A stretch of 64,000 nt of DNA from an uncultured Gammaproteobacteria bacterium (GTDB lineage: Bacteria > Pseudomonadota > Gammaproteobacteria > SZUA-229): NCBI GenBank assembly GCA_963803185.1, contig CAWDMF010000007.1, forward strand, positions 2,718-66,717, written 5' to 3'. A model generated the notes under the pieces. The model ran no database searches, had not been told where the DNA came from, and worked only from the letters and a program-made list of their open reading frames with translations. Both the position numbers and the translations under genes were made by a program. Position 1 is the stretch's first letter. Every line of letters begins with the position of its first letter. Below, one piece after another: positions 6,941-64,000 of the stretch.

Positions 6941-7048
6941 GTTGTAGTTTTAAGTTGCGGCTTTATGCTGTGTCAGCTTAAAAAGCATGAATTTTTTTTA
7001 AATATTTGTTTATTAATTTAGATTAATACTTTCGGGGGGGCACTAGAC

Positions 7049-8239
7049 ATGTCTAAGGAAAAGTTTGAAAGAACCAAGCCACACGTAAACGTAGGCACAA
7101 TTGGTCACGTAGACCACGGTAAAACCACACTGACAGCAGCGATGACGAAAGTTATGGCAGAAGCGCAGGGCGGTGAAGTGAAAGCCTTTGATCAAATTGA
7201 TAATGCACCGGAAGAGCGTGCACGCGGCATCACCATCGCGACCTCACACGTGGAGTATGAGAGCCCGAACCGTCACTATGCGCACGTTGACTGTCCTGGA
7301 CACGCCGACTATGTGAAGAACATGATTACCGGTGCAGCGCAGATGGACGGTGCTATCCTGGTTGTATCAGCTGCAGATGGCCCGATGCCTCAGACCCGTG
7401 AGCACATTCTGCTGTCACGCCAGGTTGGTGTGCCATACGTGCTTGTTTACATGAACAAGGCGGACATGGTTGACGACGAAGAGCTGTTAGAGCTGGTTGA
7501 GATGGAAATCCGTGAGCTGTTAGACGCTTATGAATTCCCGGGCGATGACACCCCGATCATTATTGGCTCAGCACTGAAAGCATTAGAAGGCGACACCAGT
7601 GAAATCGGCACGCCATCAATCATCAAGCTGGTAGAGGCGATGGATGACTACATTCCGCAGCCAGAGCGTGCGGTAGATCAGCCATTTTTGATGCCTGTTG
7701 AGGACGTATTCTCGATCTCGGGTCGCGGTACGGTGGTAACCGGTCGTATCGAGCGTGGAGTGATCAACGTTGGTGAAGAGATCGAGATCGTCGGCATCCG
7801 TGACACCCAGACAACAACCTGTACCGGTGTTGAGATGTTCCGCAAATTGCTGGACACAGGTGAAGCCGGTGATAACGTTGGCCTGTTGCTGCGTGGCCTG
7901 AAGCGTGAACAGGTTGAGCGCGGCCAGGTATGCTGTAAGCCGGGTTCTGTTAACCCGCACACCAAGTTTGAGTGTGAAGTTTACATATTAAGTAAAGATG
8001 AAGGTGGTCGTCACACGCCATTCTTCAATAACTACCGTCCACAGTTCTACTTCCGTACGACTGACGTGACAGGTGCATGTGATCTGCCGGAAGGTACCGA
8101 GATGGTAATGCCTGGCGATAACATAAAAATGATAGTGACCCTGATCAACCCGATTGCGATGGAAGAAGGTTTACGCTTTGCGATTCGTGAAGGTGGTCGT
8201 ACCGTTGGTGCGGGTGTGGTTGCTAAAATTATTGAGTAA
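7049..8239 (+). CDS. tuf: elongation factor Tu (copy 1, tufB-like position)
   Basis: [11 protein letters not shown]-loop, DCPGH, NKAD motifs; 396 aa. Confidence 0.97.
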
Positions 8240-8295
8240 TTGTTTGCTCTAAATGAGTATGGCGGGAGGTAAGACCATGTCCTACCTCTCGTTAC

Positions 8296-8480
8296 GACGT
8301 ACATGGATGTGGCAAGTGCGGAAAATGCAGGAGCGATTTTCAGCCGACGTACATGGATGTGGCAAGTGCGGAAAATGCAGGAGCGATTTTCAGCCGACGT
8401 ACATGGATGTGGCAAGTGCGGAAAATGCAGGAGCATTTTTTCCGCCAAGTACATGGATGTGGGAAATGCAGGTATTGCAT
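8296..8480. repeat. tandem repeat, 50-bp unit x ~3.7
   Basis: ACATGGATGT starts at 8301, 8351, 8401, 8451 (exact 50-bp period); unit cgacgtacatggatgtggcaagtgcggaaaatgcaggagcgattttcagc, last copy degenerate. Confidence 0.85.
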
Positions 8481-8499
8481 AAGCAAATATCTGCCTGTT

Positions 8500-24332: not shown

Positions 24333-24473
24333 CGAATAGATTAGCATCGCGGCGTACAATACGCGATAGCAGGTTTGCAGATGGGTGCGATAAAAATACC
24401 GGTCTGCAGGCAAAGATTAAAATAAACCTGATTTATTAAACATTTAAGATAAAAAAGAGAAGAGGTAATAGCA

Positions 24474-25664
24474 GTGTCTAAGGAAAAGTTTGAAAGAACC
24501 AAGCCACACGTAAACGTAGGCACAATTGGTCACGTAGACCACGGTAAAACCACACTGACAGCAGCGATGACGAAAGTTATGGCAGAAGCGCAGGGCGGTG
24601 AAGTGAAAGCCTTTGATCAAATTGATAATGCACCGGAAGAGCGTGCACGCGGCATCACCATCGCGACCTCACACGTGGAGTATGAGAGCCCGAACCGTCA
24701 CTATGCGCACGTTGACTGTCCTGGACACGCCGACTATGTGAAGAACATGATTACCGGTGCAGCGCAGATGGACGGTGCTATCCTGGTTGTATCAGCTGCG
24801 GATGGCCCAATGCCTCAGACCCGTGAGCACATCCTGCTGTCACGCCAGGTTGGTGTGCCATACGTGCTTGTTTATATGAACAAGGCCGACATGGTTGATG
24901 ACGAAGAGCTGTTAGAGCTGGTTGAAATGGAAATCCGTGAGCTGTTAGACGCTTATGAATTCCCTGGCGATGACACCCCGATCATTATTGGCTCAGCACT
25001 GAAAGCATTAGAAGGCGACACCAGTGAAATCGGCACGCCATCAATCATCAAGCTGGTAGAGGCGATGGATAACTACATTCCGCAGCCAGAGCGCGCGGTA
25101 GACCAGCCATTTTTGATGCCTGTTGAGGACGTATTCTCAATCTCGGGTCGCGGTACGGTGGTAACCGGTCGTATCGAGCGTGGAGTGATCAACGTTGGTG
25201 AAGAGATCGAGATCGTCGGCATCCGTGACACCCAGACAACAACCTGTACCGGTGTTGAGATGTTCCGCAAATTGCTGGACACAGGTGAAGCCGGTGATAA
25301 CGTTGGCCTGTTGCTGCGTGGCCTGAAGCGTGAACAGGTTGAGCGCGGCCAGGTATGCTGTAAGCCGGGTTCTGTTAACCCGCACACCAAGTTTGAGTGT
25401 GAAGTTTACATATTAAGTAAAGATGAAGGTGGTCGTCACACGCCATTCTTCAATAACTACCGTCCACAGTTCTACTTCCGTACGACTGACGTGACAGGTG
25501 CATGTGATCTGCCGGAAGGTACCGAGATGGTAATGCCTGGCGATAACATAAAAATGATAGTGACCCTGATCAACCCGATTGCGATGGAAGAAGGTTTACG
25601 CTTTGCGATTCGTGAAGGTGGTCGTACCGTTGGTGCAGGTGTGGTTGCTAAAATTATTGAGTAA
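24474..25664 (+). CDS. tuf: elongation factor Tu (copy 2, GTG start)
   Basis: Protein identical to copy 1 except D/N at one position; nucleotide ends identical, a few synonymous changes centrally. Confidence 0.97.
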
Positions 25665-42649: not shown

Positions 42650-43126
42650 ATGAATGGCTTATTGAAAAAACGATTTATTTTGCCGTGTTGCGTAGTGTGT
42701 ATGTGTGCGCCATCGGTTTTGTTGGCCTCACCAGATGATTTAGATGAAATAACCATCCGTATAATCGAGGACGATGCCTATATCCCCGGTGTTCATAGCC
42801 TGGAACTGCCTGTTTTTGGCAATGATGATGACCGTGATAAGGATACTAAGGACGATGCTATTGATGACAGGAATGAGGATAAGGATGATATCGAAGAACA
42901 GGAAGATACTGACGAGACCGACGAACCTGATGAAGCAGATGATGATCGGGATGAGCTAGAGGAACCTGATGATCTGGATGAGCCAGATGAGCCAGATGAG
43001 CCAGATGAGCCAGATGAGCCAGATGAGCCAGATGAGCCAGATGAGCCAGATGAGCCAGATGAGCCAGATGAGCCAGATGAGCCAGATGAGCCAGATGACT
43101 ATGATGATCATGACGATCATGATTAG
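42650..43126 (+). CDS. secreted hyper-acidic repeat protein, (EPD)13 tract and DDHDDHD tail
   Basis: Sec signal peptide (..APSVLLASPDD), then >50% D/E; 13 tandem GATGAGCCA units encode EPDEPDEPD... Confidence 0.6.
   Translation: MNGLLKKRFILPCCVVCMCAPSVLLASPDDLDEITIRIIEDDAYIPGVHSLELPVFGNDDDRDKDTKDDAIDDRNEDKDDIEEQEDTDETDEPDEADDDRDELEEPDDLDEPDEPDEPDEPDEPDEPDEPDEPDEPDEPDEPDEPDEPDDYDDHDDHD
42977..43093 (+). repeat. 9-bp in-frame microsatellite (GATGAGCCA)x13
   Basis: Perfect 13-unit array inside CDS 42650..43126. Confidence 0.95.
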
Positions 43127-43321
43127 CCAGATGAGTCTGAGGAATCAGAAAAGTCAGAATCACCAGGAATAGCATTAGCAGCAAACATGTCATATCCGTT
43201 GCCCGGGTTTTTAATGTATTAGCACTGGATTTCCTTTAGCCTGCTGCCGGGTAATTTATGGCAGCATAAAAGATTGCGGGGATATAGTTCAGAGGCAGCA
43301 TGTGCAATATAATGAGCACTT

Positions 43322-50812: not shown

Positions 50813-52228
50813 TATTCACTAAAATCATCCAGCGGGCTTTTTATATTGTCATGGTTCTTTTGCATCACGTGTGTGTAGATTTCTGTGGTTTTAACATCGT
50901 TATGCCCTAACAATACCTGTAACACCCGAATATTTTCACCATTTTCTAATAAGTGTGTGGCAAAGCTATGTCTATTATTCCGAGCTCGGAATAATAGACA
51001 TAATGCCGAGTTCCGGATTATTCCGAGTAGCAAACCGAAACACGGTGAATCACGGGATCTTGAGTACATCGAACTCGGCATAATCAGAGGCTATTCAGAA
51101 AAGCCAGTAGCTGATCATCGGGCCGATAACGTGCCATGGGTATATTTGAAGGAGTTGTCGTCGCCAAGGCTTTTTCTTTAAGTTTTAGATCTGCGTGGAG
51201 ATAGATATAGGTTGTTTCTACAGACTCATGACCAAGCCAGAGCGCAATAACAGTGTGATCAAAGCCAATAAAAGAAGACAGCCTGATTATTCCGAGTAAT
51301 CAAGCAGTGGATACCCTCATAAACCATTGAATGTAGGTATATGTCAGACGCATGTCAACATGCTACTCGGAATAATCCGGAACTCGGCATTATGTCTAAG
51401 CGTATGTGGCGAAGTGCGTTTAATGATCCCGGCCTTAATTCTTGCACTTGATACCGCTTTTTGTAGTGCGCTTTTATTAAGATGATGTCGCATAACTTTC
51501 CCGGAGCGCGGATCAGTCGAGCGTACTTTAGAAGGAAACAAATATTGCCAGCCCAATGAAATGTTTGCTTTGCTGTATTTACGACTTAATGCTGTCGGCA
51601 AATAAACTTCACCATAACCATCGGCTAAATCTTTATTGTGCAGTTGCTTTACCACTTCAATTTGGTCACGAATGGGTTGATGCAAAGCATCAGGGAAAAT
51701 TGTAGTGCGATCTTTGTCGCCTTTGGCATTTCTGACATAAATTTGATTATTTTCAAAATCAATGTCATGAATGCGTAAACGAATAACTTCCAACGAGCGT
51801 AAACCAGAGCCATACATCAAGTAGGCTAATGTTTTTGCCGTGCCCGACATGCAGGTCAACAAGGACTTTACTTCATCTTTACTTAATACGGTAGGCAGTC
51901 TTTTCCCTTTAGTTGTACGCCTGGCGCGGATATCAAGATCCATTGGCATATCAAGTACTTTTTTATAAAGGAACATAATGGCATTAAATGCCTGGTTCTG
52001 AGTTGAAGCTGCGACGTTGCGATTAACCGCAAGATGGCTTAAGAACCGTTCAATTTCAAACTTACCCATCTCCCTGGGGTGTTTCTTTCCATTGAAACGA
52101 ATAAATTTTAAGATCCATTCAACATACGATTTTTCAGTATTGTATGCGTAATGATAAAACCGAAGTGTTTCGCGTACCTGATCCATTAATCTGGTCGCAG
52201 TGGGTCGAAACGTAACTGACTCATCCAT
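50812..52228 (-). pseudogene. intI: integron integrase gene interrupted by a ~425-bp MITE insertion
   Basis: N-terminal part 51393-52228 has IntI signature (LPTALSRKYSKANISLGWQYLFPS, additional domain) and ends ..SPHTLRH then runs into element; C-terminal part ([36 protein letters not shown]) resumes at 50970 in continuity. Confidence 0.85.
50971..51398. mobile_element. non-autonomous MITE-like element with 36-bp perfect terminal inverted repeats and subterminal ATTATTCCGAG repeats
   Basis: TIR AGACATAATGCCGAGTTCCGGATTATTCCGAGTAGC at 50996-51031 and reverse-complemented at 51363-51398; ATGTCT present at both junctions; no coding capacity. Confidence 0.75.
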
Positions 52229-54530: not shown

Positions 54531-54574
54531 ACATAAAAAAACCCAGGTGTTAACAAAAATAAATTGGAGGCGTA

Positions 54575-54778
54575 ATGGATCCTGATAAAATGATGAGTGA
54601 CATTTCAAAAGAAATACTTACGGCATTAAAAGCAATGGCAAAAGCAAAAAACCCTGAAGAAAAACTGATACACAGTGAAATAGTAAAGAATCTATGTGAT
54701 TCACTTGGAGTTTTTCTTAGTTTAATAAGTGATATGGCTCTATATGATGATGACGATGATGAACCAATCCCATTTTAA
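54575..54778 (+). CDS. integron cassette ORF 5, small protein with acidic tail (DDDDDEPIPF)
   Basis: 67-aa ORF; near-identical second copy at 57200. Confidence 0.55.
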   Translation: MDPDKMMSDISKEILTALKAMAKAKNPEEKLIHSEIVKNLCDSLGVFLSLISDMALYDDDDDEPIPF

Positions 54779-54789
54779 AATCACGTTTG

Positions 54790-54875
54790 CATAACAAATA
54801 AATTAACGCAGATCGCCATAGACGCCGTTTGTTTTCAAATAGGCCGTGCAGCGGCTGGTTATTAAAACGTTATGT
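54790..54875 (+). other. attC site 5 (family C)
   Basis: CATAACAAATAAATTAACGCAGATCGCC...GGCTGGTTATTAAAACGTTATGT. Confidence 0.6.
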
Positions 54876-56859: not shown

Positions 56860-57079
56860 TAACGAGCCAATCGGTGATTTAAAACTAATACCTGATTTTC
56901 TACCATCACCGGAAGAGCTCGCACTCAAACAACAAAATACTAAAGTCACAATATCTCTTAGTTCAGAGAGTGTTGCCTATTTTAAAGACACTGCAAAAAA
57001 ACATCACATGCAGTATCAAAAAATAATTCGGCAGTTACTCGATGAGTATGTGGCTCACCAAAAAAGTGCTAACAAGTAG
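56837..57079 (+). CDS. brnA: BrnA-family antitoxin, second copy (overlaps toxin 3' end)
   Basis: IPDFLPSPEEL..KVTISLSSESVAYFK, RHH/CopG-like; start at internal Met 56837. Confidence 0.7.
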   Translation: MSKTIQYSNEPIGDLKLIPDFLPSPEELALKQQNTKVTISLSSESVAYFKDTAKKHHMQYQKIIRQLLDEYVAHQKSANK

Positions 57080-57156
57080 CTCAACATTGACCATTTTATA
57101 CGCCGCTTCGTTTCACTTCGCAGCGTATAAAATGGCAAGTTAGCATGGCGTTATGC
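57076..57156 (+). other. attC site 9 (family A)
   Basis: CTCAACATTGACCATTTTATACGCCGCTTCGTTTCACT...GGCAAGTTAGCATGGCGTTATGC. Confidence 0.6.
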
Positions 57157-57199
57157 ACATAAAAACACCAGGTGTTAACAAAAATAAATTGGAGGAATA

Positions 57200-57373
57200 A
57201 TGGAACCTGATAAAATAATGAGTGACATTTCAAAAGAAATACTTACGGCATTAAAAGCAATGGCAAAAGCAAAAACCCCTGAAGAAAAACTGATACACAG
57301 TGAAATAGTAAAGAACCTATGTGATTCACTTGGAGTTTTTCTTGGTTTAATAAGTGATATGGCTCTATTATGA
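57200..57373 (+). pseudogene. duplicate of cassette ORF 5 with 1-bp insertion truncating the acidic tail
   Basis: MEPDKIMSDISKEILTALKAMAKAKTPEEKLIHSEIVKNLCDSLGVFLGLISDMALL*; TAT->TTAT shifts frame. Confidence 0.6.
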
Positions 57374-57415
57374 TGATGACGATGATGAATCAATCCCATT
57401 TTAAAATCACATTTG

Positions 57416-57501
57416 CATAACAAATAAATTAACGCAGGCCGCCATAGACGCCGTTTGTTTTCAAATAGGCCGTGCGGCGGCTGGTTATTAAAACGTTATG
57501 C
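57416..57501 (+). other. attC site 10 (family C, ~97% identical to attC 5)
   Basis: Direct alignment with 54790-54875. Confidence 0.6.
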
Positions 57502-57979: not shown

Positions 57980-58085
57980 CATAACAATGGCAATTGAGTG
58001 GGACTTGCCTTCCGCGGTGTTCGTTTGTGCTTGATAGCACAAGCCTCACCCCGCTCCGGCAAGCCCCTCATTGCGAGCGTTAGCA
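57980..58085 (+). other. attC site 11 (long)
   Basis: CATAACAATGG...GCGAGCGTTAGCA with internal palindromic arms. Confidence 0.45.
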
Positions 58086-58135
58086 TCTCAAAAACTACAT
58101 TGACAAGTGTAATCCAATGGATTATACTTGTAGTC

Positions 58136-58474
58136 ATGCAAGCCATAGTCGAACTACCTGAATTCCTGAGAAAATCTGATAAATTACTCAGCAATACAGA
58201 AAGACTAAGTATTATCAATTATTTAGCTGAGCATCCGGCGGCTGGCGATATCATGCAAGGCACTGGTGGTATTCGTAAATTAAGGTGGTCTGCACAAGGT
58301 AAAGGCAAAAGTGGCGGTGTACGTGTGATCTATTACCATCACAATGAATCAATGCCTTTATTTTTATTAACACTGTTTGGTAAAGGCGAAAAAGCCAACT
58401 TAACCAAATCTGAGAGTAACGATCTAGCCAAATTCACATCGTTATTAATTAAGAACTATGGAGGCCAAAAATGA
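58136..58474 (+). CDS. higB: RelE/ParE-superfamily toxin, HigB-like
   Basis: GGIRKLRWSAQGKGKSGGVRVIYY motif; start at internal Met 58136. Confidence 0.7.
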   Translation: MQAIVELPEFLRKSDKLLSNTERLSIINYLAEHPAAGDIMQGTGGIRKLRWSAQGKGKSGGVRVIYYHHNESMPLFLLTLFGKGEKANLTKSESNDLAKFTSLLIKNYGGQK

Positions 58475-58758
58475 GTAAAGCATTTGATAGTATCAAACAA
58501 GGCCTTGATGAAGCTTTAGAGTTTTCAAAAGGCAAAAAAGGAAAAGCAGTGGTGCATGAATTCACACCTTTAGATGTAAAAAACATTCGAGCCAAGGTAG
58601 GTATGTCACAAAATGAGTTCGCATCAGCATTCGGCATAAGTGTTAGCACACTCCGCCACTGGGAGCGCGGAGACAGAACACCACATGGCCCTGCATTAGT
58701 TTTATTAAATGTAGTCGCCAAAGAGCCCAAAGCAGTACTTAAAGCACTGAGTCACTAA
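58471..58758 (+). CDS. higA: XRE-family HTH antitoxin, HigA-like
   Basis: HTH (MSQNEFASAFGISVSTLRHWERGDRTP); 4-bp overlap with toxin. Confidence 0.7.
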   Translation: MSKAFDSIKQGLDEALEFSKGKKGKAVVHEFTPLDVKNIRAKVGMSQNEFASAFGISVSTLRHWERGDRTPHGPALVLLNVVAKEPKAVLKALSH

Positions 58759-58838
58759 GTGCTAACAAGTAGCTTAACTTTGACCATTTTATACGCCGCT
58801 TCGTTTCACTCCACTCTGTATAAAATGGCAAGTTAGCA
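58759..58838 (+). other. attC site 12 (family A), truncated by IS insertion
   Basis: Matches attC 9 up to GGCAAGTTAGCA then diverges into IS terminal repeat GGTTCCGTCGCAAA. Confidence 0.55.
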
Positions 58839-59636
58839 GGTTCCGTCGCAAATAAGTGAATTGGCGCCAACATTTCCTGAACGTCATTCCGCTTACGCAG
58901 CCAGGGCATAGAATTGATCAGCAAATGATAAATTACGCGAGATGTTTTTTTTCATTTGTCCTTTTTTGATCATAGCAACCAGCTCAATTCCAGCCAATGT
59001 GCTTTGAGCTGAATTGAAGTTTTTGAAGCCAAGCATTGGTCGTGTTAACCGTTTTATTCGTCGGTGATCCTGCTCTATGATGTTGTTCAAGTATTTACAT
59101 TGACGCACTTTAACTCGCTTATTGTTGTCTTCATTGAACTGAGTTAAAGCGGCTTTATTAGAGCCACTTTTATCGATGTTTACTAAGCCAGGCTTGCCGT
59201 TTCTTTCAATAGCTTTGGTGAAATATCTTAGCGCAGCCGCTTTATCGCGCTTGGCGGTGAGGAGGAAGTCGATGGTATTTCCCTGCTTATCGACAGCTCG
59301 GTAATAATATTTCCACTCGCCTTTAACCTTGATATAGGTCTCGTCCATTCTCCATCGATCACCTGGACGTCTCTTCTTTTGATGGAAAGCCTTTTCAAGT
59401 TGAGGCGAGTAGAAAGTAACCCAGCGATTCAATGTGCTATGATCAACCTCGATGCCTCGCTCTGCCACCATCTCTTCGATATTCCGATAGCTAAGGGCAT
59501 ATGCACAATACCATCTTACACATTGAAGAATAATTTCACGAGGGAAGTGTCGCGATTTAAAACTGATCATATGGAGCTACTTGAAGTAAAGTTGAGTTTC
59601 AACATTATACTCGAACGGCCTGAATGCGACAAAACC
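58839..59636 (-). mobile_element. IS6-family insertion sequence (~798 bp)
   Basis: 14-bp imperfect terminal IRs GGTTCCGTCGCAAA (58839) and GGTTTTGTCGCATT (revcomp at 59623-59636); single transposase ORF; no flanking 8-bp duplication. Confidence 0.75.
58893..59570 (-). CDS. IS6-family (IS26-like) DDE transposase
   Basis: MISFKSRHFPREIILQCVRWYCAYALSYRNIEEM..MDETYIKVKG..YYYRAVD typical of IS6 Tnp. Confidence 0.85.
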   Translation of the reverse strand: MISFKSRHFPREIILQCVRWYCAYALSYRNIEEMVAERGIEVDHSTLNRWVTFYSPQLEKAFHQKKRRPGDRWRMDETYIKVKGEWKYYYRAVDKQGNTIDFLLTAKRDKAAALRYFTKAIERNGKPGLVNIDKSGSNKAALTQFNEDNNKRVKVRQCKYLNNIIEQDHRRIKRLTRPMLGFKNFNSAQSTLAGIELVAMIKKGQMKKNISRNLSFADQFYALAA

Positions 59637-59690
59637 CCGGTAATTAGTCGAAATAACAAACCACATATTCAGCTTGAAAAAGGACAGTAT

Positions 59691-62600
59691 ATGATCACCG
59701 GGCAATTTAGCTGGGAACAGTGCCCAAAATCACTCTCTATTCCCAGTGAGACAGGCCTGGTTTATTTAACAATAGACAATACAAAAGTAGCGTTACCTGA
59801 CTTTCGCCAGGGCAAGTTGTGGCTAAAAACAACCAGCGCTTCAACACATCAAAACAACCGATTAGAGCTGCAGGTATTTAGAAAAATATCTGACACCATC
59901 CCCATGCGTGTTATCACGCAAATTAAACTTGATGTATCAGGTCAGCAACGTGAAATTATCCTCGATGGCGCTTTACTTAATGGCTTTAGCCCGAGTGCCA
60001 TTGATAGTCCTCTGCCATCACAGTTGGATAAAGGTGGACGTTTAAAAGTCCAGATAAGACCAGGGCAATGGACAGTTGATATCAGTGCTTTTAACCCGCG
60101 ACAACTAGAGTCGATTGTACTTCCTTCCTTTAAGACCCCCTGGCCAGGTAATGAAGTGTGGGTAGTAGACCAGCAGACACAGCTCCGCCTGATAAAAGTA
60201 GTCGACAAAAATAGTATTGATCCGAATCAAACACAACTGCCACAGCGTTGGAAATCCTATCCCGCATACAATATGCAAGGTGGTGAAAAATTATCGTTTA
60301 AAGTCATTAAACGTGGTGATCCTGACCCGGAGCCCGATCAATTAAGTATTAAAAAAAGAATATGGCTGGATTTTGATGGCAATGGATTTACCATAAACGA
60401 CAAACTCACCGGCACGCTTACAAAGCAATGGCGACTAAATGCGTCGTCAGATGTCTCGTTAGGACAGGTCACACTTAATGGTAAGCCACAATTTATAACA
60501 ACAGACAGCAATAATAAACAAGGCGTTGAGGTAAGACACGGGAATCTTGATCTATCCGCTGATAGTCGCGTAATAGGCGACACGCGAATACTGTCATCCG
60601 GTGGCTGGGATATGGACTTTAATCAGGCTGAGGCTACGCTATTTCTGCCGGCTGGGTGGCGGTTACTGTCTTTGACAGGTGCGAATACCAGCAACACCTG
60701 GATTGACAAATGGTCACTCCTGGATCTATTTATGGTGCTGATAACTGCGATTGCTATCTACAAGTTGTGGGGGATTCGATGGGGTGTATTAGGGTTGGTT
60801 GCCTTAATTATCTTGTGGCATGAGTACGATGCACCACAGTATATATGGATAAATCTGATCATCGCTATTGCCATGTTGCGATCTTTGCCACAGGGTCGTT
60901 TTTATAAAATTATCACTAGCTATCGTCTGTTGACATCTGTTGTTCTGTTGCTCATTACATTACCGTTTATCGTTAATCAGGCACGAACGGCCATTTATCC
61001 GCAACTCGAATTTAGTAACATGAGTGCAAGTAACTCCTTTGCACGGGATGCTGTCTACCCGGCTTCAACTGTATCTCCAGTACAAAAACTGTCTAGTTCG
61101 GTCGCTGAAAGGGCGTTAATGGCAGATGAGGAACCTATGCTCAGCAGTGTAGGACGAGGTAAGTCAGGCTATCTGTATGAAAAGAAACATAAGCAAATAA
61201 TCACCATCGATCCAGACGCGATGATACAAACCGGCCCAGGCCTGCCATCCTGGACACTGCATCAGTTTCACTTACGCTGGGATGGGCCTGTCCGTCACGA
61301 TCAGACGATTTCAATGACGTTGCTATCGCCGGCGATGAACTCACTGCTCAATATACTGAGAATCGCACTGGTATTGCTACTGGCCTGGCGTCTTCTTGAT
61401 ATTGGTTCATTGAAAATACCAAAACTTCCCGTTAAAGCAGAAAGCAAGACGTTAGTAACAATATTTCTAGTCGGTAGCCTGTTTGGTTTATCACCAACAC
61501 CTGCAGATGCTGCCTATCCGTCACAGGAAATGCTTAATCAATTATATGATGAGCTAACCAGGGAGCCAGAGTGTTTACCCCAGTGTGCGAGTATCGAGGC
61601 ACTGGATATTGATTTATCGTCGGAGCAGCTCACCCTGAACATGCGAGTTCATGCACATGAGAATGTCTCGCTGCCACTACCAGTCCCCGTTAAACAATGG
61701 TCCCCCTCTAAGATAAGCGTCGATGATAAATCTTCAGCCATCCTTTCGCGTCAGAGTGATTCGACACTATGGATCTATTTAACAGAAGGCAGTCACACGG
61801 TTAAATTTAGTGGTCGTGTAACAGCTTTAGATCTTCTGCAACTTAGCTTTCCATTAAAACCGCATCATATAGCATTAACCATGAAAGGTTGGACAGAGGA
61901 GGGTATGGACAGCCAGGCGTATAAAATTACAGCACTCTCTTTTCAACGGATTGCAGATAAAACCAGTCCTTCAAAGACTAATAAGATAGAGCAAAAAGAG
62001 ATTCCCGTTTATGCTGAAGTAACAAGAGAATTACAGCTGGGACTGGACTGGTACGTTACGACAACCGTACAAGGTGTTTCAGGTAGTGCTTACCCGGTTA
62101 TTTTAGAGATCCCCTTACTGACGGGTGAATCGGTGGTAACCGACAATATTAAAGTGGTTGATGGCCATGCAATCATTACACTCAGCCGCCCAGATCAGAA
62201 AATAAGGTGGACATCAAAACTTAAAATTAATGATCAGATTAACCTAAAGGCAAGTGAGCAGGGCAGGTTCATCGAGAAATGGTCACTCAATTCAAGTGCT
62301 ATCTGGCACATTGACTATGATGGTATACCTGTCATCTATCACCAACGGTATGCGAACCAGTGGCAGCCGGAATGGCAGCCATGGCCGGGTGAAGAGGTAG
62401 TCATTTATGTCAGCCGTCCTGAAGGGGTTAAGGGCAACACTATTACCATTGATAGCAGTAAGCTTTCATTAACACCTGGTGAGCAAATAACAGCATCAAA
62501 ACTGGCCTTTAATCTGCGCAGTAGCCTCGGTGGACAGCATACTATTAAGATTCCTGAAAACACTGATCTGCAGACGGTCATGATAAATGGTCAGAGTATG

Positions 62601-63392
62601 CCTATTCGGCGTACCGATGAAGGTATCGCTTTGCCGGTATCACCCGGTAATCAAAAAGTTGAAATAAACTGGCATGAGACACGTGGTATCAGTCCATTTT
62701 ATAAATCTTCTGAGGTTGATCTAGGAACGCAGAGTGTCAATCATGGGCTTCAAATTGAGCCAGGTTATAACCGTTGGGTATTATTTACATCAGGACCGAC
62801 TATGGGACCGGCTGTTTTATTCTGGGGTGTGTTTGGTGTAATTATTCTTATTGCTATCGGATTAGGACGTGTAAAAGGTACTCCGCTGAGTACACTTCAG
62901 TGGTTGATACTGGCAATTGGATTAAGCGCATCTGAACCCTGGGCCGTGATAATCATCGCCGTGTGTATCCTGGCACTTAAAGCGCGCGCTTCCCTAAACA
63001 CAGTGACTTTGAGCAATACAAAATTTAACTTTATCCAAATAGGACTTGTGGGCTTAATGTTCTTCTCGATCAGTACATTGATCGTAGCAATCCAACAAGG
63101 ACTGCTCGGTTCACCTGACATGCAAATCATTGGTAATGGATCCAACGCCAATCAACTCAACTGGTTTAGTGATCGCATATCATCAAATACACCATCTGCA
63201 TTGGTAATATCGGTACCTGTCTTTGCTTATCGTCTGATGATGCTGGCCTGGTCGATTTGGTTGGCATTTGCGCTTATAAAATGGGCACAATGGGGGTGGG
63301 GTAGCTTCACGAGCCAGGAGTATTGGCGAAACGTATCAATAAAGAACATCTCTACTAAGAAGAAAGGAGAGAGTGATGAATCAAAAAACTAG
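59691..63392 (+). CDS. giant (1233 aa) multi-pass membrane protein of unknown function; possibly 5'-truncated by the IS6 element
   Basis: Open frame is continuous back into the IS; first Met after IS end at 59691; TM cluster mid-protein and ~6 TM helices at C-terminus, no signal peptide. Confidence 0.5.
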   Translation: MITGQFSWEQCPKSLSIPSETGLVYLTIDNTKVALPDFRQGKLWLKTTSASTHQNNRLELQVFRKISDTIPMRVITQIKLDVSGQQREIILDGALLNGFSPSAIDSPLPSQLDKGGRLKVQIRPGQWTVDISAFNPRQLESIVLPSFKTPWPGNEVWVVDQQTQLRLIKVVDKNSIDPNQTQLPQRWKSYPAYNMQGGEKLSFKVIKRGDPDPEPDQLSIKKRIWLDFDGNGFTINDKLTGTLTKQWRLNASSDVSLGQVTLNGKPQFITTDSNNKQGVEVRHGNLDLSADSRVIGDTRILSSGGWDMDFNQAEATLFLPAGWRLLSLTGANTSNTWIDKWSLLDLFMVLITAIAIYKLWGIRWGVLGLVALIILWHEYDAPQYIWINLIIAIAMLRSLPQGRFYKIITSYRLLTSVVLLLITLPFIVNQARTAIYPQLEFSNMSASNSFARDAVYPASTVSPVQKLSSSVAERALMADEEPMLSSVGRGKSGYLYEKKHKQIITIDPDAMIQTGPGLPSWTLHQFHLRWDGPVRHDQTISMTLLSPAMNSLLNILRIALVLLLAWRLLDIGSLKIPKLPVKAESKTLVTIFLVGSLFGLSPTPADAAYPSQEMLNQLYDELTREPECLPQCASIEALDIDLSSEQLTLNMRVHAHENVSLPLPVPVKQWSPSKISVDDKSSAILSRQSDSTLWIYLTEGSHTVKFSGRVTALDLLQLSFPLKPHHIALTMKGWTEEGMDSQAYKITALSFQRIADKTSPSKTNKIEQKEIPVYAEVTRELQLGLDWYVTTTVQGVSGSAYPVILEIPLLTGESVVTDNIKVVDGHAIITLSRPDQKIRWTSKLKINDQINLKASEQGRFIEKWSLNSSAIWHIDYDGIPVIYHQRYANQWQPEWQPWPGEEVVIYVSRPEGVKGNTITIDSSKLSLTPGEQITASKLAFNLRSSLGGQHTIKIPENTDLQTVMINGQSMPIRRTDEGIALPVSPGNQKVEINWHETRGISPFYKSSEVDLGTQSVNHGLQIEPGYNRWVLFTSGPTMGPAVLFWGVFGVIILIAIGLGRVKGTPLSTLQWLILAIGLSASEPWAVIIIAVCILALKARASLNTVTLSNTKFNFIQIGLVGLMFFSISTLIVAIQQGLLGSPDMQIIGNGSNANQLNWFSDRISSNTPSALVISVPVFAYRLMMLAWSIWLAFALIKWAQWGWGSFTSQEYWRNVSIKNISTKKKGESDESKN

Positions 63393-64000
63393 TATGATGA
63401 GCCAGGAAACACAATCCACAGTTTTTGATTATCGATTATTACGACTTGTAATCGGTATTATCGCGTTGTCATTACCATTGGTTGTATGGATGTCTGCTGG
63501 TACCAAGCTTACCTCTATCAGTGCATCGTACTACACAGATGCGCGAAACTATTTTGTTGGGATGTTATTTGTGGTATCAGCATTCTTGCTGGCCTATAAC
63601 GGCCACTTTTTAAGGGAAGCATTAGCAAGCAAGATCGCTTCACTTGCTGCTGCGGGTATCGCGTTATTTCCTACGCTTTGTGATGAGGTCATAACCACGA
63701 ATATATGTTTAGCTTGTTCAACACTGAACACAGCCATCGTTCATTATGTGTGTGCATTTACTATGTTTGGTATTCTGGCTTATTTTTGTCTGGGTCCTTT
63801 TAGTGATAAGACAAAGACACGAGGGGCAATGTATGATCGCCGTCGATGGGTCTATCAAGTTTGTGGCTGGGGAATCATAGTCTCTTTTGCTTTAGGTGGA
63901 GTTACTATGATGATGTTTAAATATTTAGATATATCCAGTGATAATAGAATTTTATTTTGGGTTGAATCACTGGCGCTTATCTGCTTTGGTATTGCCTGGA
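63376..64000 (+). CDS. polytopic membrane protein of unknown function (partial, runs off window end)
   Basis: ATG at 63376 overlaps end of upstream gene; >=5 hydrophobic helices in first 200 aa. Confidence 0.5.
   Translation, partial: MNQKTSMMSQETQSTVFDYRLLRLVIGIIALSLPLVVWMSAGTKLTSISASYYTDARNYFVGMLFVVSAFLLAYNGHFLREALASKIASLAAAGIALFPTLCDEVITTNICLACSTLNTAIVHYVCAFTMFGILAYFCLGPFSDKTKTRGAMYDRRRWVYQVCGWGIIVSFALGGVTMMMFKYLDISSDNRILFWVESLALICFGIAW

Follow-up and report, generated by a model that had tools for sequence, protein, structure and literature searches.

Results

Within the window, by which we mean the whole 64,000-bp stretch of DNA analysed here, an insertion sequence (IS) of the IS6 family lies between the end of an integron cassette array and the 3′ part of a large gene for a secreted or membrane protein (Table 1). 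To the left of the IS are the last gene cassette of the array, which carries a toxin–antitoxin pair, and the array's final attC site, attC 12. At least 10 more attC-like sites are present between the integrase gene intI and attC 12.

Table 1. Features of the integron, the insertion sequence and the adjoining large gene (window coordinates)
Feature	Position	Strand	Basis or remark
Integrase gene intI	51344-52228	opposite strand to attC 12	TIGR02249, 342 bits
Last gene cassette	58081-58832	+	From TT of the attC 11 R′ core to G of the attC 12 R′ core
RelE-like toxin gene, in last cassette	58136-58474		Pfam RelE
NadS/Xre-type antitoxin gene, in last cassette	58471-58758		Pfam HTH_3/MqsA_antitoxin
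attC 12, final attC of the array, complete	58760-58838	+	R″ TGCTAAC 58760-58766; R′ GTTAGCA 58832-58838; reverse complement TGCTAACTTGCCATTTTATAC
8-bp flank on the IRR side, AGTTAGCA	58831-58838		Direct reading; differs from the other flank
IS6-family insertion sequence, 798 bp, no name yet	58839-59636	minus	Inverted repeat pair and copies with the same ends
Inverted repeats IRR and IRL	58839-58856; 59619-59636		GGTTCCGTCGCA / GGTTTTGTCGCA
Transposase gene, intact, 225 aa	58893-59570	minus	678-bp ORF between the inverted repeats
Probable transposase promoter, TTGTCG-17-TATAAT	59604-59632	minus	Consensus scan, 10/12 matches
8-bp flank on the IRL side, CCGGTAAT	59637-59644		Nucleotides 343-350 of the intact gene
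3′ part (codons 115-1365) of large secreted/membrane protein gene	59637-63392	+	Colinearity with L022-L029 by blastn

attC 12 lies directly 3′ of the antitoxin stop codon. The sequence from 58757 to 58838 is 91% identical to the attC at 57064-57145 as far as ...GGCAAGTTAGCA. The R′ core of attC 12 is whole and complementary to R″ at 7/7 positions, and the two core sites fit the inverted R″ (RYYYAAC) and R′ (GTTRRRY) pattern except that the outermost base of each is off the R/Y consensus. The attC at 57064-57145 has the same cores, and attC 11 combines the R′ core GTTAGCA with the R″ core GCATAAC. The bottom strand of attC 12 folds with the entire 7-bp R box and 11-13 bp of the L stem paired, interrupted by single-base bulges; the folding z-score is −2.55 for attC 12 and −5.7 for its sister attC. 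The two preceding attC sites of the same class also end in GTTAGCA, followed by T and then the next cassette, attC 11 ending in ...GCGTTAGCA followed by T at 58080-58086. Because the R′ core is whole and ends like the preceding sites, the IS immediately follows the core, which places its first base 6 bp beyond the crossover point between G and TT. Thus, while the preliminary description rightly placed the IS at attC 12, the element is not inserted into this site, which is intact through GTTAGCA, but lies outside it.

The toxin–antitoxin pair in the last cassette is 91.5% identical to a pair in a related integron (L030), in which the pair is followed by an attC of another class. This type of pair is very widespread, with 3273 antitoxin matches at E ≤ 1e-10, many of them at ≥90% identity. 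The antitoxin was considered as a marker for the same array end in other genomes and was rejected because the family is too common.

intI is split, with residues 1-280 encoded at 52228 to 51389 and residues 267-330 at 51024 to 50815 (50815-52228 overall). The splitting sequence is an insert of ∼364 bp (∼51025-51388) with long terminal inverted repeats (…ATAATGCCGAGTTCCGGATTATTCCGAGTAGC…). Both ends of this insert match the ends of a 3.4-kb element that occupies the same intI site in L030 and contains three tyrosine-recombinase genes. The insert resembles a miniature form of such a recombinase-trio element from which internal sequence has been deleted. With respect to its own cassettes, the integron is probably unable to mobilize them.

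Several repeats were also observed in the window. Within the array, ∼340 bp occur twice (54536-54874 and 57161-57500) with 96% identity, in what looks like a duplicated cassette, and include an 87-nt attC (54789-54875 and 57415-57501). Outside the array, there are two tandem repeats, one at 42896-43192 with ∼22 copies of a 9-bp unit and one at 8245-8494 with ∼4-5 copies of a 50-bp unit, and a 300-bp dispersed repeat (7039-7338 and 24464-24763) of 98% identity with its copies 17 kb apart.

The assignment of the element to the IS6 family in the preliminary description is borne out by its transposase, which matches the NCBIfam equivalog NF033587 (transpos_IS6; cutoff 125 bits) with 265.6 bits over profile positions 1-202 of 202 and Pfam PF13610 (DDE_Tnp_IS240) at 1.5e-43. 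IS6-family elements are ∼700-890 bp in size and have a single ORF that fills most of the element (PMC7986276). The element agrees with the family in its DDE transposase type, its size with a single ORF, and its short inverted repeats starting with GG. These repeats match at 10 of the first 12 positions and both open with GG; GGTTCCGTCGCA begins at base 58839 and its inverted partner, TGCGACAAAACC, finishes at 59636. These limits are set by nine further complete copies, ∼98-99% identical, with the same first and last base (ends fixed with L012-L018, L047, L048 and L055). The −35 element of the predicted transposase promoter falls within IRL. On the plus strand, a consensus scan predicted no promoter, hybrid promoters included, that would read out of the IS into the truncated gene.

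The contig collection contains 41 blocks that encode exactly this transposase, and ∼20 distinct flanks of the element were recovered, which demonstrates its mobility. Among plasmid-borne IS6 transposases, the nearest share ∼65% aa identity with that of the window; by this sequence comparison, the element is a new, unnamed IS. No target preference, whether for attC-like sites or for another consensus, was evident across the ∼20 IS flanks.

As noted in the preliminary description, the IS is not flanked by a target duplication: the adjoining 8-mers, AGTTAGCA and CCGGTAAT, neither match nor share a register. The left octamer given in that description, GTTAGCAG, was shifted by one base into the IS, and the mismatch holds either way. 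In the IS6 family, simple insertion creates direct target repeats of 8 bp. A matching 8-mer duplication was found in 0/10 complete copies of this IS (that of the window, L012-L015, L017, L018, L047, L048 and the second copy in L055), and the inverted pair of IS copies in L055 has no direct or inverted 8-bp signature. IS26 in multi-copy genomes has likewise been reported without duplications (He et al. 2015, PMC4471558), and unmatched flanks can reflect unresolved cointegrates as well as intramolecular events in cis (deletion) or in trans (inversion) (PMC4471558). Because the duplication is absent from all ten copies, its absence is not diagnostic, and concluding from it that intramolecular transposition with deletion took place, as was originally done, is a weak inference. 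The evidence of a rearrangement is the truncated gene rather than the absent duplication.

Other loci with this IS, or parts of it, were also informative. At least one other copy, that in L014, adjoins a gene that is cut to profile positions 1-87 of 245. Solo IRR-end fragments of 31-35 bp without an IS body are present in L015 (3174-3204) and L053 (5676-5710) and are likely scars of earlier IS-mediated deletions. In L013, L047 and L048 (also L034), flank pairings differ: L047 combines, through the IS, the left flank seen in L013 with the right flank seen in L048. Such shuffling reflects either recombination between copies in the population or chimeras in short contigs. A second IS6-family element with ∼75% nucleotide identity is present in L024 (14392-14646), ∼300 bp 3′ of the large gene in L024-L027. 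This second element also adjoins the IS in L017 (383-1060), and the locus borders IS6-rich DNA. The junction between attC 12 and the IS had 0 matches in JGI metagenomes. In a scan of IRR ends at 19 loci, all from other samples, the reciprocal junction that an inversion would produce, with IRR followed by ATTACCGG..., was found in none.

On the right side of the IS, colinearity with the relatives L022-L029 begins exactly at 59637, which corresponds to nucleotide 343 of their gene, and continues at 97% nucleotide identity. In these relatives, the protein has 1365 aa and 97% aa identity (one cluster, P0001). At the breakpoint, the relatives read ...AAAGCAATA followed by CCGGTCATTAGTCG, whereas the window reads ...GACAAAACC followed by CCGGTAATTAGTCG, and the relatives' sequence 5′ of nucleotide 343 is unrelated to that of the window. 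At this site, the large gene lacks a promoter, a start codon, a signal peptide and the first 114 codons, and the break is exact to the base. The missing 114 residues start with MECLSRLKQFTAIIFFFAVIITSSAANA... (P0127/P0128) and comprise a typical signal peptide followed by a conserved Cys-containing segment. The N-terminal 114 aa with the signal peptide are kept in all relatives, near and distant. In distant relatives from gammaproteobacterial MAGs (55-63% identity), the ORFs are 1371-1429 aa long and include a conserved N-terminal extension, and the reading frame in the window aligns to them only from PVISRNNKP..., that is, from the first codon after the IS. A database search returned 862 homologues at E ≤ 1e-20, the best 120 of which are almost all 1343-1444 aa.

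The large ORF remains open back to a TTG at 59379 within the IS, as the preliminary description had stated; its further statement that the ORF lacks a signal peptide and a proper N-terminus is confirmed by the 114-aa N-terminus of the relatives. The comparison with relatives suggested there, namely whether these have the same N-terminus without the IS, gave the opposite result (1365 aa, colinear from 59637), and the original proposal has withstood it. The first in-frame ATG is at 59691; the protein that starts there has the same sequence as P0130, which belongs to the 97% cluster, is 1233 aa long and comes from a contig of 90,156 bp. The Met at 59691 is also present in some intact alleles (P0128), and the Shine-Dalgarno-like context of this ATG is therefore incidental.

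The truncated gene has no internal stops, and eight hydrophobic segments were found in its protein. With respect to relaxed selection, the ratio of nonsynonymous to synonymous differences (N/S) is 26/30 in the window lineage versus 28/65 in three relatives (Fisher p = 0.054); differences that are clustered within the first 500 nt of the truncated gene and look like allelic recombination confound this comparison. We regard the remnant as most likely a recent pseudogene. The family to which the gene belongs has no functional annotation and no Pfam or NCBIfam match, is widespread in gammaproteobacterial MAGs, and is characterized by a signal peptide and two clusters of hydrophobic segments. In a further, near-identical allele of the large gene, two ORFs of 607 and 757 aa were called (P0128 and P0124, each on a 5574-bp contig, probably one and the same), reflecting either a frameshifted allele or a sequencing error.

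Further downstream, L022 (sample ERZ25083860), in which the gene is intact, and L019 (sample SRR22302361) share the sequence of the window up to position 64000. From 79 bp past this position (∼64079), both contain the same IS, inverted relative to that of the window and with IRL facing the gene (L019 1451-2194, L022 5170-5223). The IRL flank of this copy, AATGAGCT, is not the reverse complement of the IRR flank in the window (TGCTAACT). The two should be complementary if the downstream copy in L019 and L022 were ancestral and a simple insertion; this copy is thus not itself a simple insertion. If the source genome also has this downstream IS, the 4.4-kb gene remnant would be bracketed by inverted IS copies.

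On the other side of the intact gene, the 10 kb of upstream DNA in five close relatives encode DUF4942, Toprim, Endonuclease_NS and Pom proteins. No integron or attC was found in these 10 kb in the five relatives, and the 10 kb have no match anywhere in the 64-kb window. The related integrons L030-L033 (IntI with ∼90-95% aa identity) differ in their arrays; their contigs end in or near the array, and only the toxin–antitoxin cassette is shared (91.5%). Accordingly, the state of the integron side before the event was not found among them, and a replicon with both present flanks colinear and the intervening DNA in place was present neither among the relatives of the gene nor among those of the integron.

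Discussion

Here, we identify a region in which the end of an integron cassette array is joined through an IS6-family element to the 3′ part of a large gene, and we consider it probable that the region is a breakpoint produced by this active IS. The outer edge of the last attC, which belongs to a sedentary and apparently chromosomal integron, meets the IS at IRR, and nucleotide 343 of a 4.1-kb gene meets it at IRL, with both joints at the IS tips. Joints at the IS tips combined with unrelated 8-bp flanks argue that the region did not arise by simple insertion. Transposition in the IS6 family is replicative; its intramolecular form produces deletions (in cis) or inversions (in trans) that have no abutting 8-bp repeats, and residual partial genes are an accepted sign of such events (PMC4471558, PMC7986276). 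We suggest that a replicative, Shapiro-type and cointegrate-forming transposase, as in IS6 and IS26-like elements, attacked a target on its own replicon, in which case the IS would carry one "old" and one "new" flank. This replicative mechanism with an 8-bp stagger is assumed for the element on the basis of its family membership. The two branches of the mechanism, inversion in trans and deletion in cis, appear about equally likely to us, and we infer a slight lean toward trans.

In the trans branch, the event would start from an IS copy 4.4 kb downstream, as is present in the two closest relatives. Attack on the gene would split it and invert the 4.4-kb segment between two inverted IS copies without loss of DNA, thereby bringing the integron end beside the 3′ part of the gene. 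The left half of the predicted product would read D′, IS (IRR left, IRL right), gene from nucleotide 343 to its end and downstream gene; the right half would read IS (IRL left), reverse complement of gene nucleotides 1-350 and reverse complement of the upstream genes. The window would then correspond to the left half, with D′ being the array end, and the second copy would start ∼79 bp past the end of the window. The inverted IS downstream of the gene in L019 and L022 has the geometry predicted by this route, and on the gene side one event from the observed state would suffice. Weighing against this route are the absence of the reciprocal junction from ∼20 IRR flanks, all from other samples, and the lack of complementarity between the IRL flank of the L019 and L022 copy and the IRR flank in the window. 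In the cis branch, an IS already beside the attC or in the gene would remove everything between the two, possibly including further cassettes. Of the reading proposed in the preliminary description, the 5′ truncation of the gene at the IS end is supported, whereas the adjacent deletion is one candidate route, with inversion at least as likely.

Cis intramolecular replicative transposition, in which the interval between the attC end and the gene was lost as a circle, is a tentative but credible explanation of the junction. The loss could possibly extend to further cassettes and to the upstream region of the gene, together with the first 342 bp of the gene itself. The window contains one IS, whose 8-bp flanks are unrelated and one end of which abuts a partial gene, a combination accepted as the signature of such a deletion (PMC4471558). 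Neither the 5′ part of the gene nor the genes upstream of it occur within the 64 kb of the window, and this IS does leave deletions, as is shown by the solo IRR remnants and by the other gene that is cut off where an IS ends. However, with no integron or attC within 10 kb upstream of the gene in five relatives, either the deleted interval exceeded 10 kb or the ancestor was arranged differently. Moreover, the closest relatives contain, 4.4 kb downstream, an inverted copy of the IS with the same end directed inward, which must be a coincidence if a deletion occurred, and the absent duplication, being common to all 10 copies, is not specific to deletion. Alternatively, two prior IS copies, one at the attC end and one in the gene, each with its own 8-bp duplication, could have undergone homologous recombination, giving a deletion if the copies were direct and an inversion if they were inverted, with no role for the transposase in the final step. 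Numerous copies that are ∼98-99% identical over 798 bp offer ample substrate, the varying flank combinations (L013 left with L048 right in L047) are what exchange between copies would give, and the product is indistinguishable from that of one-step transposition (PMC4471558). We nevertheless consider this route unlikely: it calls for two independent prior insertions at exactly these sites and is less parsimonious than one intramolecular event, its starting material, a copy with an intact 8-bp duplication, was seen in 0/10 copies, and the shuffled flanks in L047, a short contig of 1.1 kb, could be an assembly artefact.

The same flank inconsistency (L013/L047/L048) could be taken to indicate that the junction itself is an assembly chimera, in which the assembler crossed via the 798-bp repeat between two real IS copies, one beside attC 12 and the other a simple insertion in the gene. 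The IS is multi-copy with nearly identical copies, and the short-read contigs of relatives typically stop within it (L016, L019-L022). Even so, the gene would be interrupted at nucleotide 343 by an IS end, so that the truncation is no artefact; the copies in L053-L055, which we take to be long-read-like from their "contig_" naming, also lack duplications, extending this observation beyond SPAdes-style (NODE_) contigs; and the source contig runs through the IS over a total of 90,156 bp, which is unusual for a short-read assembly. We therefore regard a chimera as quite improbable. That the IS simply inserted into an existing junction between attC and a naturally short gene, and later lost its duplication by mutation, has practically no probability. 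This reading accounts for the superficial picture of one IS between two features, but it is refuted by the family length, with the best 120 of 862 members almost all 1343-1444 aa and possessing the 114-aa N-terminus, by the colinearity that starts at 59637, and by the relatives of 97% identity, which continue 5′ of nucleotide 343 with unrelated sequence; in addition, the two 8-mers share no register. Altogether, an intramolecular rearrangement made by the IS itself is the reading that we favor.

The element resembles IS26, IS6, IS257, IS431 and IS6100 in being ∼800 bp long with one DDE transposase ORF and short terminal inverted repeats starting with GG and, as in IS26 and the IS6 family, the transposase promoter is predicted to lie in IRL. 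As described for IS26, it is multi-copy, has copies without abutting 8-bp repeats and is associated with partial genes at IS ends (PMC7986276, PMC4471558). In contrast to IS26, the IS in the window is found in an uncultured environmental gammaproteobacterium and in an apparently chromosomal setting rather than on a resistance plasmid. It also differs from IS26 and the other IS6-family elements in that none of its ten copies has an 8-bp duplication and in that no hybrid outward promoter was detected. Intramolecular transposition of IS26 in Klebsiella and Enterobacter plasmids yields, as in the window, lone IS copies that have unmatched flanks and adjoin a partial gene, and also segments enclosed between inverted copies that face them with the same end (He et al. 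2015, PMC4471558); unlike in those cases, only one side of the event is visible in the window.

Mobile elements at attC sites of integron arrays are also known from other families, and the location of the IS beside attC 12 is similar in this respect. The IS1111-attC group of the IS110 family and group IIC-attC introns insert site-specifically inside attC sites, and these families are unrelated to IS6. By contrast, the IS in the window, with its DDE transposase, belongs to IS6; it is situated just beyond an attC that is intact, and ∼20 other flanks of this IS reveal no preference for attC. It is highly doubtful that this IS6 lineage moves almost only without abutting duplication, by intramolecular or targeted-conservative transposition, an idea prompted by the 0/10 copies with a duplication, and that the folded or cruciform attC at an array end is a favored target. 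If this were true, the joining of chromosomal genes to the far end of sedentary integrons would be a routine outcome of IS6 activity and a way of placing new DNA beside an attC.

The breakpoint has direct consequences for how the region is to be read. The 1233-aa "gene" in the annotation is the 3′ remnant of a gene for a 1365-aa protein and should be marked as a pseudogene. The cassette array no longer stops at its native end and, with a split intI as well, the integron is impaired in two ways. In addition, the analysis adds to the record a highly mobile IS6-family element, as yet without a name, from gammaproteobacteria of marine or sediment origin that are uncultured. Its behavior is standard for IS6 and IS26 elements, as seen for IS26 on clinical plasmids, in an environmental and apparently chromosomal setting. 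The finding is a useful but unsurprising extension of IS-driven genome rearrangement of a well-understood kind.
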